Positions 2,420-27,594 of a stretch of DNA of 64,000 nucleotides are shown here, in pieces. Source of the stretch: Minisyncoccota bacterium (GTDB lineage: Bacteria; Patescibacteriota; Minisyncoccia; JAHIHE01; JAGLIN01); contig JAQVBZ010000005.1 of the NCBI GenBank assembly GCA_028690055.1, positions 379 through 64,378 of the forward strand, in the 5' to 3' direction. Under the pieces are notes generated by a model, which worked only from the letters and a program-made list of their open reading frames with translations, did not search any database and was not told the DNA's origin. Positions within the stretch are counted from its first letter, which is position 1. The number at the start of each line of letters is the position of its first letter. Made by a program: the position numbers and the translations under genes.

Positions 2420-2524
2420 GGAGTAGCAGGTTTTAACCTGCGCGGTTGTCCGATGCGGATGAGAAGATTGCATGCGATGACTTTACGGCTTGGGATAGCA
2501 GCGCGGGATGAATCCCGCTACTCC
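2420..2524. ncRNA. Copy A of a repeated ~100-nt structured element (closing stem GGAGUAGC/GCUACUCC, 5' hairpin CAGGU-UUUA-ACCUG, conserved CGCGGUUGUCC, 3' hairpin CGGGA-UGAA-UCCCG)
   Basis: First 31 nt identical to copy B at 26465. Same architecture as copies at 27499 and 14843, with compensatory changes in the stems. Lies between pilD and ligA. Confidence 0.45.
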
Positions 2525-2550
2525 GCCGAAATGACACAATTCCGACATTT

Positions 2551-3357
2551 CTAATACACGAGCATCCCCAAATACCAGACCATTATTTCGCTTCCCCAGA
2601 AATAACTTATCACCAATCCCAGTATCAAAAACGGTCCGAAAGGCAAAGCGCTTTTCATTTTTTTCTTGCGCAGTATTATCATCACGAGCCCCACGATTGC
2701 CCCAGACACGAAAGCGATAAATAGCGCAAGGAAAGTCTTCGAGAAGCCCAATGTCATCCCCATCAGGAATCCCAGTTTCACGTCTCCGCCCCCCATACCC
2801 TCTCCCTTAGTGATCCATATCAGAAACAAGAAAAATCCGCTGACGAGCATAGCCGCACCCAAAAAATCAAGAAATATATCAATATCAAGCCCGGTTGTCG
2901 ACAGAGCATTAATAAGGAGAAGCAAGAAAGATACGCCAATTGCAGGAAAAACCACTTCATCGGGAATGATATAGTGCTTCAAATCAAAAACAAAAATCAC
3001 AACAAGGGATAAGAATATGAACAGCAAGAAAATGAAACGCAAGATACTCACCGTGGCAAGATCGCAAGCAGAAAAAATCTGCATAAAAAGCACGGCGGAA
3101 ATGATACCAGCTGTAATCTCCACCAACGGATACTGCCAAGAGATTTTCTTTTTGCAATATCGGCACTTGCCCCGCAAAAATAAAAAGCTCAGCACTGGAA
3201 AGAGATCATACCAGGCCAGCTGATGAGAACAGAAAAGGCATTTTGAACGAGATTTGACGATACTGTCTTTCGTGTGCAAGCGGAATATCACCACATTAAG
3301 AAAGCTACCAAACATCAGCCCAAAGACAAAGACCACCAGCAAAATAAAATAATCCAT
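2551..3357 (-). CDS. pilD: Prepilin peptidase (A24 family, PilD-like)
   Basis: 268 aa polytopic membrane protein. N-terminal CxxC...CxxC tetracysteine (CLFCSHQ...CRYCKKK) typical of PilD. Sits in the pilus cluster. Confidence 0.8.
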   Translation of the reverse strand: MDYFILLVVFVFGLMFGSFLNVVIFRLHTKDSIVKSRSKCLFCSHQLAWYDLFPVLSFLFLRGKCRYCKKKISWQYPLVEITAGIISAVLFMQIFSACDLATVSILRFIFLLFIFLSLVVIFVFDLKHYIIPDEVVFPAIGVSFLLLLINALSTTGLDIDIFLDFLGAAMLVSGFFLFLIWITKGEGMGGGDVKLGFLMGMTLGFSKTFLALFIAFVSGAIVGLVMIILRKKKMKSALPFGPFLILGLVISYFWGSEIMVWYLGMLVY

Positions 3358-3602
3358 ATTAAAAGTTATGATTATAACTATGCTATTGCATATTATTAGG
3401 AATGCAGTTTTTATACCCTAACTTGGCCTCGCTACGCCTTGGCATCGACGTGAACGTATCCGTCTAAAAGCCACACCAAAGACAACCGATACGATTTATA
3501 ATCTATAGCCTGTTAATTATCAAGATCCCCTCTCTACAATATATCACACTTTAACAACAAAAAAACGGGCAAATGCTGTCTGCTTCCTTCACGATTCCGA
3601 TA

Positions 3603-4046
3603 TCAATTAGCGTAGATACACTCATTGTTATTACAAGTAGCCGTTTCCCAACCACCAGTATTGTCTATTCCCGGTGTCAAAACAACTGAAAAAGTTCCTC
3701 CATCGCAATCATCATCAACCACGATTGAGCCAATAGAGGAAGCCGAAGGAAAGTCGCCATAGGAAGTGATATCGGAATAGTCTGAAGCTTTTCGACAAAT
3801 AGAATCTCCCGGCAAAGGCGAAGTATCTGCTGCAACCATTAGAGTAGTATTTACTGACTCGCAACACATTAGCAACGACGACTGTACACTTTTAGTGGTA
3901 GTCTGGAAGGAAACCCTGTTTGCCTTTATTCTAGCACCGGTTATGGAAGACATTACTATTGTCGACAATAGGCCAATGATCGAAATCACGACCAGAATTT
4001 CGATTAGAGAGAAACCCGAAATTTTTCTTCCAACAATCTTTTTCAT
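3603..4046 (-). CDS. Type IV pilin / pseudopilin-like protein
   Basis: N-terminal class III signal: MKKIVGRKISGFSLIEILVVISIIGLLSTIVM (G|FSLIE plus hydrophobic helix). C-terminal Cys-rich DDDCDGGTFS motif shared with the neighbouring pilin. Confidence 0.75.
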   Translation of the reverse strand: MKKIVGRKISGFSLIEILVVISIIGLLSTIVMSSITGARIKANRVSFQTTTKSVQSSLLMCCESVNTTLMVAADTSPLPGDSICRKASDYSDITSYGDFPSASSIGSIVVDDDCDGGTFSVVLTPGIDNTGGWETATCNNNECIYAN

Positions 4047-4169
4047 GTGTCTTATAAATTTATTTATATATTAACTTATGAACTAATAATATCACAAGTT
4101 ATATTTTTATACAATTTTAAAACGGATAGTCAAACTATCCGTTTTAAATTTAAAATTCAGAAAAACATC

Positions 4170-4562
4170 CTAAGAGAAATCGCAACTTGTTTCAGTACAA
4201 ACTGCAGCACTTGTCAGAGTTCCTGCAAAACTAGTAGGAAGATCGATGGTCAATGTAAAGTCCCCAGCGTCACAGTCATCTGTTACTACAACAGCACCGA
4301 TACCTGTAGGATAGTTGGCGCCCCCTGTACATATCGCCGTTCCCGCATCTGCAGCAACCGCATTCAATGCAGGACTAGGTTCGTCGCAACAGAGAATAGC
4401 ACCAGACTGAATACTGGAAACTGACGACTTGTACGATGCATCCGCAGCTTTTCTTCTTGCTCCGTTAAGGGAAGTCATAGCGATGGTCGATAGAATACCG
4501 ATGATAGCGATAACTACCAAGAGCTCTATAAGGGTAAAACCTTTAGTATTATTCATTTTCAC
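4170..4562 (-). CDS. Type IV pilin (major pilin candidate)
   Basis: MKMNNTKGFTLIELLVVIAIIGILSTIAM prepilin leader with N-methylation motif. C-terminal cysteines and DDCDAGDFT motif. RBS GGGAGGTG upstream. Confidence 0.8.
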   Translation of the reverse strand: MKMNNTKGFTLIELLVVIAIIGILSTIAMTSLNGARRKAADASYKSSVSSIQSGAILCCDEPSPALNAVAADAGTAICTGGANYPTGIGAVVVTDDCDAGDFTLTIDLPTSFAGTLTSAAVCTETSCDFS

Positions 4563-4629
4563 TTTTCTTCACCTCCCTTCAATTATTTTTTAGTTTATTA
4601 ATCTATATCTCTTAAACTTTGGAATTCAT

Positions 4630-4665
4630 AATTGCATTATAGCATACGCTATTTTTTTTGCCTAG
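4630..4665 (-). promoter_or_regulatory. Putative promoter with extended -10 (TGCTATAAT) for the pilin gene
   Basis: Minus-strand reading ...tatgctataatgcaatt... lies ~70 nt upstream of the pilin start, followed by a strong SD. Confidence 0.3.
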
Positions 4666-26345: not shown

Positions 26346-26381
26346 AATTTTTGCAAATTTATAAATAATTATTTTTTCCTG

Positions 26382-26426
26382 AAGTGGTAGATTTTAGTCT
26401 GCGCAGCTATCCTATGCGGTTGATAC
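26382..26426. repeat. Partial (5'-half) copy of the repeated structured element
   Basis: AGATTTTAGTCTGCGCAGCTATCCTAT matches AGACTTCAGTCTGCGCGGTTGTCCTAT of copy C. It lacks the 3' half. Confidence 0.3.
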
Positions 26427-26464
26427 AAACTAATAGGAGGAGTAAACAATTGATATGAGCTAAC

Positions 26465-26574
26465 GAGTGGAGTAGCAGGTTTTAACCTGCGCGGTTGTCC
26501 TATTCAAGTGAAACGTGCTATTACCGAGAATTAAGAGGCTTGGAATAGCCGCGCGGGATAAATTCCGCCACTCC
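26465..26574. ncRNA. Copy B of the repeated structured element
   Basis: GAGTGGAGTAGCAGGTTTTAACCTGCGCGGTTGTCC...GCTTGGAATAGCCGCGCGGGATAAATTCCGCCACTCC. Closing stem GAGUGG/CCACUC. Confidence 0.45.
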
Positions 26575-26633
26575 GAAGTAATAGCCGGTTCGCTATTCTC
26601 TTCGAGTGGTATATCATTAAATCCCATTACAAC

Positions 26634-27458
26634 CTATTCGCCATTTATCACTCGCGGAAAATATTCAAATAGATCACTGGCGAGTAGTGACTCGCCATAT
26701 TTCACGCCAGCCATCTCACCCGCACTTCCATTAATATAACACGCGGCTTCGGCCGCTTCAAGAGGGTCAGTTCCTCTCGCCAATAGCGCGCCACATATCC
26801 CCGCGAGCGTATCACCGAATCCACCCTTGCTCATAAAAGCGTTACCGGTACGATTGAGCAAAGTGCGCTCTCCATCAGAAATCACATCGGTCGCCCCCTT
26901 TAGGATCACAACCGCGCCCAGCTTCTCTGCTGCAACTTTTACTTTTGTCTGTCGCTCTTCGATATCATCTCCGACCTTCTCTCCGGTCAGATATTCGAAC
27001 TCGGGAATATTGGGAGTTAGAACTGCCTGCTTGCCTTTCAATATTTCTTCGTGTCCGGCCACTGCCCTGATCGCCTCCGCATCAAGTACCATCGGCAAAT
27101 CTATTTTCTGGATTAATTTTCGTATCGCCAAGAAAGATTCCTCCGACCGTTTCATGCCACCGCCCATCACCAACGTATCGAATCTCTGAGAAAGTTCCAT
27201 GAGATTCGATACGTCATCCTCTTCGAATTCTCCCTCCAGCGGAAAGGTAATCATATCCGGCCGATAAGCCGCCACGACATCCATCGTCCGCCGATGCCCC
27301 GCCACTGTAACTAGATCCGCCCCACACCGCAGCGCCGACATCGCATTAAAAATCGGAGAACCGGAGTACATCTCGCTCCCCGCCACGATCAGCACATACC
27401 CAAAATCACCTTTGTGAGCATTCGCTTTCCTTGTAGTATAAATCTTTTTTAGATTCAT
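26634..27458 (-). CDS. nnrD: ADP-dependent NAD(P)H-hydrate dehydratase (YjeF C-terminal/carbohydrate kinase-like domain)
   Basis: 274 aa. GDFGYVLIVAGSEMYSGSPIFNAMSALRCGADLV and C-terminal KGGFGDTLAGICGALLARG signatures of the YjeF_C family. Confidence 0.8.
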   Translation of the reverse strand: MNLKKIYTTRKANAHKGDFGYVLIVAGSEMYSGSPIFNAMSALRCGADLVTVAGHRRTMDVVAAYRPDMITFPLEGEFEEDDVSNLMELSQRFDTLVMGGGMKRSEESFLAIRKLIQKIDLPMVLDAEAIRAVAGHEEILKGKQAVLTPNIPEFEYLTGEKVGDDIEERQTKVKVAAEKLGAVVILKGATDVISDGERTLLNRTGNAFMSKGGFGDTLAGICGALLARGTDPLEAAEAACYINGSAGEMAGVKYGESLLASDLFEYFPRVINGE

Positions 27459-27498
27459 GTTTTTTAATAAATATAGAAAAGGTGTGTTCTCTCACTTC

Positions 27499-27594
27499 GA
27501 GTAGCAGACTTCAGTCTGCGCGGTTGTCCTATTAGAAAAAACATATAACGTATTGTTACCTAGGATAACCACACGGGTTGAAACCCGTTACTCC
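27499..27594. ncRNA. Copy C of the repeated structured element
   Basis: GAGTAGCAGACTTCAGTCTGCGCGGTTGTCC...GGATAACCACACGGGTTGAAACCCGTTACTCC. Both hairpins carry compensatory substitutions relative to copies A and B. Confidence 0.45.

Follow-up and report, generated by a model that had tools for sequence, protein, structure and literature searches.

A probable family of GTAG-type REP doublets with its own RAYT in Patescibacteria

A 64-kb stretch of DNA from a Minisyncoccota bacterium (contig JAQVBZ010000005.1), hereafter referred to as the window, contains several copies of an intergenic element of about 100 nt, which an earlier note made from the sequence alone had described as a structured element with covarying stems. 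This element is very probably a doublet of repetitive extragenic palindromes (REPs), of the type known as REPIN (REP doublet forming hairpin) or BIME (bacterial interspersed mosaic element), belonging to a GTAG-type REP family that has its own REP-associated tyrosine transposase (RAYT) in Patescibacteria, or candidate phyla radiation (CPR). A REP is a short palindrome preceded by GTAG, and two inverted REPs across a variable linker form a BIME or REPIN (PMC3733652; PMC3337134; PMC8266576).

Each element consists of two copies of one 32-nt unit, which are inverted around a variable spacer of 25–45 nt, and both arms fit one model. The unit starts with the tag GGAGTAGC, which contains GTAG, followed by a stem of 5–6 bp with a TTYA loop and by a 12-nt tail, GCGCGGTTGTCC. 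GTAG is found directly 5' of the stem, as in REPs of the GTAG type, and the 32-nt unit with its 5–6-bp stem and 4-nt loop falls within the range of 20–50 nt for a short palindrome. The stem sometimes contains a single bulged T. The tag is kept at 97–100% per position among 144 doublets. The 5' and 3' hairpins that the earlier note listed as separate parts are one subterminal palindrome, reverse-complemented in the right arm; its loop reads TTYA in the left arm and TRAA in the right. Given a short palindrome with GTAG on its 5' side and inverted pairs across a linker, the anatomy is therefore that of REPs organised as BIMEs or REPINs.

A covariance model of the 32-nt unit, R1, was built from 35 diverse arms and searched against the whole 64 kb without filters. 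The features identified in the window are as follows.

2371–2392, plus strand: decayed lone REP remnant upstream of copy A; R1 13.8 bits, E 0.5, weak alone; hairpin with an internal deletion; missed by the earlier note
2420–2451, plus strand: left REP unit of copy A, GGAGTAGC + CAGGT-TTTA-ACCTG + GCGCGGTTGTCC; R1 55.3 bits, E 7.5e-10
2452–2492, no strand: variable spacer of copy A, enclosed by its inverted REPs; dissimilar to the B and C spacers (blastn-short)
2493–2524, minus strand: right REP unit of copy A, inverted (iREP), stem CGGGA/TCCCG; R1 50.3 bits
14843–14942, plus strand: copy D, degenerate REP doublet; left unit 14843–14868 (plus) R1 10 bits, right unit 14911–14942 (minus) 23.1 bits
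26381–26412, plus strand: lone REP remnant, the half copy of the earlier note; R1 23.9 bits, E 0.0035
26469–26500, plus strand: left REP unit of copy B, 32/32 identical to the left unit of A (blastn-short); R1 55.3 bits
26543–26574, minus strand: right REP unit of copy B (iREP); R1 40.6 bits
27498–27529, plus strand: left REP unit of copy C, stem CAGAC/GTCTG; R1 49.3 bits
27563–27594, minus strand: right REP unit of copy C (iREP), stem CGGGT/ACCCG; R1 45.6 bits

The window thus holds eight units and two remnants, all intergenic, and beyond these R1 found nothing above noise in the whole 64 kb. The four copies and the half copy reported before were found by direct reading, blastn-short and R1 alike, and a covariance model, which had been suggested as a check and was built here on the 32-nt unit, recovered every one of them, D weakly. 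It was also confirmed with blastn-short that A and B share their 5' end (32/32, E 3e-13) and have unrelated inserts; their 3' ends were 87% identical over 38 nt. In addition, positions 2387–2401, which overlap the upstream remnant, matched positions 27–41 of A in 15/15 nt, and D matched the right arm of B in 20/22 nt. A reverse orientation of D was considered and rejected, as its minus-strand core match with two mismatches is merely its right-arm unit; the plus orientation stands. The R1 scores in the window were 41–55 bits for the arms of doublets A–C and 14–24 bits for the lone units, so that here the singlets are decayed relative to the doublets.

Further loci were retrieved with an exact scan, one genome per species, for the pattern GTAGC, N9-11, CTGCGCGGTTGTCC, in which the hairpin was left free. 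The scan of genome contigs returned 73 loci, of which about 60 came from one Patescibacteria metagenome-assembled genome (MAG), JBAXYM01, in both orientations. The few further loci were from the Paceibacterota MAG JAQUYG01 and two MAGs labelled Saccharibacteria. Matches in high-GC genomes (Streptomyces, Corynebacterium, Bordetella, Nannocystis and others) were discarded as chance: the rest of the element was absent and their number fits a hand-estimated dozen or so chance matches. With the same pattern, 119 additional loci were found in metagenomes, mostly the landfill metagenomes Ga0172377, Ga0172378, Ga0172381, and Ga0265294. An nhmmer search over all loci identified 558 units in 372 distinct sequence contexts, many of them singlets, and 152 distinct doublets, most often 106–109 nt long; these are counts over loci, in which strain variants of one site are possibly counted repeatedly. 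Half copies and tandem arrays were common. Moreover, 109 of the 130 oriented doublets did not overlap any open reading frame (ORF) by more than 30 nt, and the other 21 overlapped a predicted ORF to that extent, according to crude ORF calls. In JBAXYM01, where 433 kb were sampled from contigs totalling 1.01 Mb, nhmmer detected at least 180 units. E. coli has about 600 REPs in 4.6 Mb, or about 0.13 per kb. The density in JBAXYM01, at least 0.18 units per kb, is at least as high.

The hairpin stems vary by compensated changes. The inner three stem pairs were GGC/GCC in 231 units, GGT/ACC in 38, GGA/TCC in 23, GAC/GTC in 20, and GAA/TTC in 4, and mismatched combinations were rare. In the seed alignment of the unit, 98.1% of cells were paired and both-side changes occurred at 4 of 6 pairs, which none of 500 shuffles reached. 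To compare the helices of the whole doublet, both arms of 50 diverse doublets were aligned with the insert removed, and the four helices gave the following values.

Left (5') hairpin: 99.2% of cells paired; both-side changes at 4/5 pairs
Right (3') hairpin: 94% of cells paired; both-side changes at 3/5 pairs
Closing stem: 97% of cells paired; both-side changes at no pair
Middle stem, CGCGGUUGUCC/GGAUAGC: 79% of cells paired; isolated changes only

The covariation claimed for the 5' and 3' hairpins was therefore borne out. The closing stem, which had been put forward as a structural helix, is almost always paired but shows no two-sided change; it is therefore merely conserved inverted-repeat sequence. 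The pairing of CGCGGUUGUCC with a downstream GGAUAGC was not supported as a conserved stem either. The structures under selection are only the two REP hairpins, and the remaining fold is inverted-repeat sequence. The covariation score of the four-helix cloverleaf was 0.231 against a shuffle mean of 0.134, and none of 500 shuffles was as high. For the long-hairpin model, in which the arms pair with each other, 84% of the arm-to-arm helix was paired, about half of the cells at variable positions were unpaired, and 464 of 500 shuffles scored as high. A single long hairpin had been obtained with RNAalifold from an alignment dominated by JBAXYM01; pair counts from more diverse doublets spoke against it. 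Among 48 doublets with differing arms, local pairing was 92–97% and inter-arm pairing 67–76%. In such heterotypic doublets, which include A–C of the window, these 67–76% refer to the variable stem positions of the arm-to-arm helix, where no covariation was found. The element of JBAXYM01 is about 107 nt long with near-perfect terminal inverted repeats (TIRs) of about 33 nt, GGAGTAGCATGGCTTTAGCCTGCGCGGTTGTCC ... GGACAGCGGCGCAGGCTAAAGCCATGCTACTCC, and the near-perfect long hairpin of the REPIN definition fits most of the doublets in this genome. On either strand, and to about the same degree, A, B, and C gave better folds than shuffled sequences (z -2.2 to -4.1); this was not the case for D (z -0.9 and -0.15). 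A and C are predicted to fold as four-way junctions. Rfam returned nothing at gathering thresholds for any copy and only chance-level matches at E up to 10, so the search that had been proposed connects the element with no known RNA family or repeat.

With E. coli RayT (MG1655) as the query, phmmer was run against all six-frame ORFs of the fetched loci and the window. Three ORFs matched (L031:1893-2411, L188:248-769, and L193:13501-14022), and a profile of these hits returned the same three. On the NCBIfam model NF047646 REP_Tyr_transpos ("REP-associated tyrosine transposase"; cut-off 80) they scored 99–102 bits, on the IS200/IS605 model 29–31 bits, below its cut-off of 55, and on Pfam Y1_Tnp 43–45 bits. 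A search for homologues found 209 at E below 1e-10, many of them on contigs of about 1 kb; where they are named in the source databases, they come from Patescibacteria and some Anaerolineae and are labelled only "transposase". Five loci of related genomes encode a RAYT of 173–178 amino acid residues with REPs close by, on both sides wherever both flanks are readable, and R1 matches lie no more than about 150 nt from the gene in L031, L188, L193, L195, L196, and L197. The HUH motif (H59, H61), the catalytic Tyr115 and NP.KH are the same as in E. coli RayT, HUH and Tyr being conserved in all, and the identities between the CPR RAYTs and E. coli RayT were 19–26%.

The homologue P0006 (60% identity) is from MAG CAZDCJ01, which also holds a dispersed element (L064). 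R1 matches are immediately upstream of P0006, and the contig stops at the 3' end of the gene. P0010 (56% identity) has REPs on both sides, and at L196 eight units lie within 200–270 nt on either side of the RAYT gene vs. one in the other ~6 kb. The diverged REPs around this gene retain GGAGTAGC and add further stem variants, CGCAC/GTGCG and CAAGC/GCTTG. Around P0046 (45% identity), the RAYT of L198, R1 found no units of this REP family. A RAYT gene bracketed by its putative cognate REPs is the arrangement called REPtron. In addition, P0006 and P0010 share a neighborhood of TPR protein, RAYT and HisKA/response regulator genes (L195, L196/L197), which suggests vertical inheritance. The CPR RAYTs carry the motifs SHYH, W[YH], and YIHHNP. 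The survey of Y1 HUH proteins by Quentin et al. (2018) covers complete genomes, does not mention CPR and lists subclass motifs in its Table 1, where subclass 2.8 is cyanobacterial with 8 members. By these Table 1 motifs the CPR RAYTs would be nearest to subclass 2.8 or 2.6.

No flanking direct repeat of ≥3 bp, and hence no target-site duplication (TSD) of that size, was found for any of 144 doublets, which argues against a MITE (a miniature transposable element with inverted repeats) of the DDE type and is consistent with HUH chemistry. The flank positions -1 (C) and +1 (G) extend the inverted repeat, and a 2-bp GC...GC excess is explained equally well as this one-base extension. Copy number varies at the locus of copy A. 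L159, from a near-identical strain, was 100% identical to window positions 1–2525, but carries three tandem A doublets with a 24-nt linker, GTGATATTTAGCGTTATGCCAGAT (L159 2798–3160), after which the window sequence resumes. L181 has the same array, and contig L105 ends at the element. The single A copy of the window may represent a real copy-number polymorphism or an assembly collapse. L143 and L195 also carry tandem arrays. Moreover, the terminal motif ...GCTACTCC is a 13-nt repeat whose number differs between JBAXYM01 strains. The terminal motif is also tandemly reiterated outside the element with a period of 12–13 nt (GGAGTAGCnnnnGGAGTAGC..., ...GCTACTCCnnnnnGCTACTCC), as seen in L029 2523–2550 compared with L146, in L043 5700–5740 and in the 5' flanks of many JBAXYM01 copies. 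This reiteration may have arisen by slippage or as a trace of repeated cutting and religation at the GTAG tag.

All copies in the window are intergenic between minus-strand genes, as had been reported. They are 27–60 nt from the preceding stop codon, with D at about 200 nt, and for A and C the next start is 40–82 nt further downstream, in strings of co-directional genes. No T-run was seen after the hairpins on the transcribed strand in the regions of the window copies. When doublets were oriented by the left arm, defined by its GGTTGTCC tail, 38 ran against co-directional genes and 14 with them, 16 were between convergent and 6 between divergent genes; these counts are inflated by pseudo-replication. 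The four window copies all follow the majority orientation, against the genes.

By analogy with E. coli and Pseudomonas, a single-copy RAYT (TnpAREP, an HUH Y1 enzyme), with its gene at another place in the genome, would bind the folded hairpin and GTAG tag on single-stranded DNA (ssDNA), cleave nearby and rejoin the strands, so that doublets would spread and leave tandem arrays and decayed half copies without TSD. If the enzyme recognizes the shape of the hairpin along with the conserved tag and loop, the stems would be free to change compensatorily. The window copies would be passengers in short intergenic spacers of minus-strand operons, co-transcribed as antisense-oriented hairpins. On the same analogy, catalysis, present-day mobility and an effect on neighboring genes are presumed, and RNA-level side effects on the surrounding operons are possible.

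A structured non-coding RNA (cis-regulatory leader, ribozyme or small RNA) with a four-helix fold maintained by selection would agree with the strong covariation of the local hairpins, the four-way junctions of A and C, the shared orientation of the window copies between co-directional genes and the 38:14 bias across loci. Such an RNA is, however, highly improbable. The two hairpins are one motif, inverted; the closing stem does not covary and the middle stem is paired in only 79% of cells; both strands fold equally well, and the commoner orientation puts the wobble-containing strand antisense to genes. Moreover, there are hundreds of copies per ~1-Mb genome, beside unrelated genes and in both orientations, 21 of 130 overlapping an ORF by >30 nt. 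Half copies and tandem arrays are common, RAYT genes are surrounded by clusters of units, and nothing in Rfam matches. Recognition of a folded ssDNA hairpin by an HUH transposase, as established for REPs, explains the stem covariation better than RNA function. Thus, the earlier argument from conserved structure with diverged sequence is upheld for the hairpin stems but not as an argument for RNA function. Similarly, the REP-like unit was among the options that it listed, whereas the functional RNA (leader, small RNA or ribozyme) with a four-helix fold that it preferred is not favored. A conventional MITE with TIRs of ~33 bp, mobilized in trans by a DDE transposase (like Correia, RUP or Nezha), is even harder to credit. 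The JBAXYM01 element, with its near-perfect TIRs of ~33 nt, length of ~107 nt, abundance and intergenic position, does look like one, but TSDs were found in 0/144 flanks, compensatory changes within each terminal repeat would be purposeless for double-stranded TIR binding, and the sole associated enzyme is a Y1 HUH protein. In addition, no transposase-sized ORF bounded by the ends turned up in the fetched loci, where large repeats were inspected without a dedicated screen. A non-autonomous IS200/IS605 derivative (a palindrome-associated transposable element) moved not by a domesticated RAYT but by a TnpA(IS200) present in multiple copies would share the enzyme superfamily (Pfam Y1_Tnp), the subterminal hairpins, the use of ssDNA and the lack of TSD. 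It is nevertheless very unlikely, as the proteins pass the RAYT equivalog cut-off (99–102 vs. 80) and fail that of IS200 (29–31 vs. 55), IS200/IS605 ends are not inverted repeats and have no GTAG tag, tnpB is not adjacent, and the RAYT neighborhood with TPR and HisKA/response regulator genes is conserved in L195 and L196/L197 and looks vertically inherited.

Different from these three, host co-option would come on top of the REP identity: the window copies would act, for example, as mRNA-stabilizing or attenuating hairpins between the genes of minus-strand operons, as some E. coli REPs do. The positions shortly downstream of stop codons in co-directional gene strings, the orientation bias relative to genes and the roles given to REP/BIME in the literature speak for such a function, which would agree with all of the results for some copies although it is rather unlikely, given that the hairpins are not followed by a T-run on the transcribed strand and that the decay of D and of the half copies argues against strong selection there. 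Several points also weigh against the identification as a REP doublet family with its own RAYT. Neither phmmer nor the profile of the hits found a RAYT in the 64-kb window, and the association with RAYT therefore rests on related genomes. The retrieval pattern fixed GTAGC and CTGCGCGGTTGTCC, so that in one arm of each locus the constancy of these parts is partly built in; the remaining arms were identified independently. Copies in one genome share descent, so the shuffle controls overstate significance. In view of the shared descent and the fixed pattern, the argument therefore rests on distinct compensated stem types recurring across several genomes. A comparison of filled with empty sites, using 200-nt flanks of the 152 doublets in the fetched loci, found no clean empty site, just array-length and internal variants, and mobility is what we infer. 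Finally, the 38:14 bias is unpredicted for a purely neutral selfish element and could reflect strand-specific insertion or RNA-level selection. Strand-specific insertion may give such a bias, as the genes in the window follow the leading strand indicated by GC skew.

The REP doublets lie in an ordinary bacterial chromosome segment, the minus-strand genes of which include those for NAD-dependent DNA ligase (ligA), a type IV prepilin peptidase, valyl-tRNA synthetase (valS), RecG, an NAD(P)HX dehydratase, and a NUDIX protein. Megablast of window positions 20–32 kb against a phage collection gave no match. The proteins beside copy B, of 218 (25689–26345) and 309 (23473–24402) amino acid residues, have no Pfam hits; they were considered as Y1 transposases and ruled out by Pfam and RAYT profile searches. 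Just past copy C and the NUDIX gene is a single tRNA gene, tRNA-Arg (anticodon GCG; 28927–28999, minus strand). The ~900 nt upstream of valS at 13933–14842, which adjoin the degenerate copy D, have no convincing ORF and hold small hairpins, e.g., GGACGGCC...GGACTGTCC; Rfam finds nothing there. The 1299-residue product of a minus-strand gene at 15946–19845 comprises a beta-helix and nine Flg_new_2 (InlB B-repeat-like) domains; the DNA repeats within this gene are 75–82% identical to each other. A full-length match to the Rfam LOOT RNA (RF03000; 73.9 bits vs. a gathering threshold of 46.4, E 5e-12) is present on the plus strand at 57539–57660, in a gap between plus-strand ORFs. The cumulative GC skew has its minimum near 50 kb, the GC content falls to 0.31 at 44–48 kb, and gene orientation changes from minus to plus at about 49.75 kb, between the divergent ORFs 49044–49700 (minus) and 49798–50208 (plus). 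The region of about 44000–50500 is possibly a replication origin, or else an acquired island; every REP copy is on one side of it.

Other repeats were also observed in the related genomes. A second, unrelated family of ~300 bp with TIRs TAGGACTTACGCG...CGCGTAAGTCCTA occurs at L003 2973–3300, with similar sequences in L010, L023, L042, L059, and L060 (JBAXYM01); its many copies are 84–93% identical, and its appearance is that of a MITE. A hairpin whose flanks are conserved, CACACCAnnnCTGGTGTG, makes up a third, small repeat; it was found at L043 5437–5520, L036 about 1480–1535, and L044 about 215–250, often beside REP doublets. This hairpin is inserted inside one doublet, where one arm tail is changed (L036 vs. 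L130). Furthermore, the sequence at L102 5660–5700 and L193 13225–13255, directly upstream of a REP doublet, is conserved between two related genomes. It resembles the 3' portion of a tRNA gene on the minus strand (GGAATCGAACC being a T-arm complement), and the REPs there may lie beside tRNA genes.

Most descriptions of REP/REPIN-RAYT systems concern Proteobacteria, and some such systems are known from cyanobacteria and a few other phyla; CPR/Patescibacteria genomes are among the smallest and most streamlined of free-standing bacteria. Our full-text literature search found no paper linking REP, REPIN or RAYT to Patescibacteria/CPR. The family described here is a new REP/RAYT family of a known selfish-DNA kind in CPR, with no new mechanism and no new regulatory RNA. 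The presence of REP/RAYT in such reduced genomes is mildly surprising. It accounts for breaks of CPR assemblies at repeats, as many RAYT homologues are on ~1-kb contigs and L105 and L181 end inside the array, and recognizing it keeps the repeats from being annotated as novel RNAs. In addition, array length varies between strains and offers a strain-typing marker, and the compact REP/RAYT pair with its natural stem variants is suited to the study of hairpin reading by HUH enzymes. Taken together, the results could be read as a vertically inherited REPIN-RAYT system in streamlined CPR, at a density at least that of E. coli, in which a barely characterized RAYT subclass tolerates at least six stem variants per genome and the repeats have a host-level role rather than being purely parasitic. 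We regard this combined reading as doubtful. If at least six stem variants are tolerated in one genome, the RAYT would therefore read hairpin shape plus tag, not stem sequence; persistence under reductive pressure and the orientation bias would, if true, suggest a host role such as mRNA processing or chromosome structuring.

Among the known systems, the REP/BIME and RayT of E. coli (REPtron) are similar to the CPR family in the GTAG tag 5' of a short stem-loop, the pairing of REP and iREP across a variable linker, the tandem arrays that vary between strains, the intergenic location, the lack of TSD and the gene for an HUH/Y1 protein of ~170 amino acid residues with REPs alongside. Different from E. 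coli, however, the sequence family is unrelated, and the CPR unit has a longer conserved tag, GGAGTAGC, and a conserved 3' tail of 12 nt. The E. coli REP stem is long with an obligatory bulge, whereas the CPR stem is just 5–6 bp with an occasional single bulged T. The hosts also differ, as the CPR family is found in genomes of ~1 Mb. Similar to the REPINs of Pseudomonas fluorescens (Bertels and Rainey, 2011; PMC3116915; PMC3337134), the CPR family has a replicative doublet of inverted REPs of about 90–110 nt with a variable spacer, singlets that look like decaying remnants, tandem arrays and a RAYT flanked by REPINs. Many CPR doublets, however, carry unlike stems and would form two local hairpins plus terminal pairing, not one near-perfect long hairpin, and no excision events were seen here.

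The subterminal hairpins of IS200/IS605 elements (IS608, ISDra2) are also recognized as folded ssDNA by a Y1 HUH enzyme and also leave no TSD. The IS608 and ISDra2 hairpins, however, bound a transposase gene, on one strand and in the same orientation, and pair with guide sequences, whereas the CPR hairpins are dispersed, inverted and tagged with GTAG, and their enzyme scores as RAYT, not as IS200 TnpA. Finally, bacterial MITEs (Correia/NEMIS, RUP, ERIC) are similar in their length of about 100–150 nt, TIRs, high copy number, intergenic position and co-transcription. Different from the CPR element, they make TSDs and need DDE transposases, neither of which was seen here.

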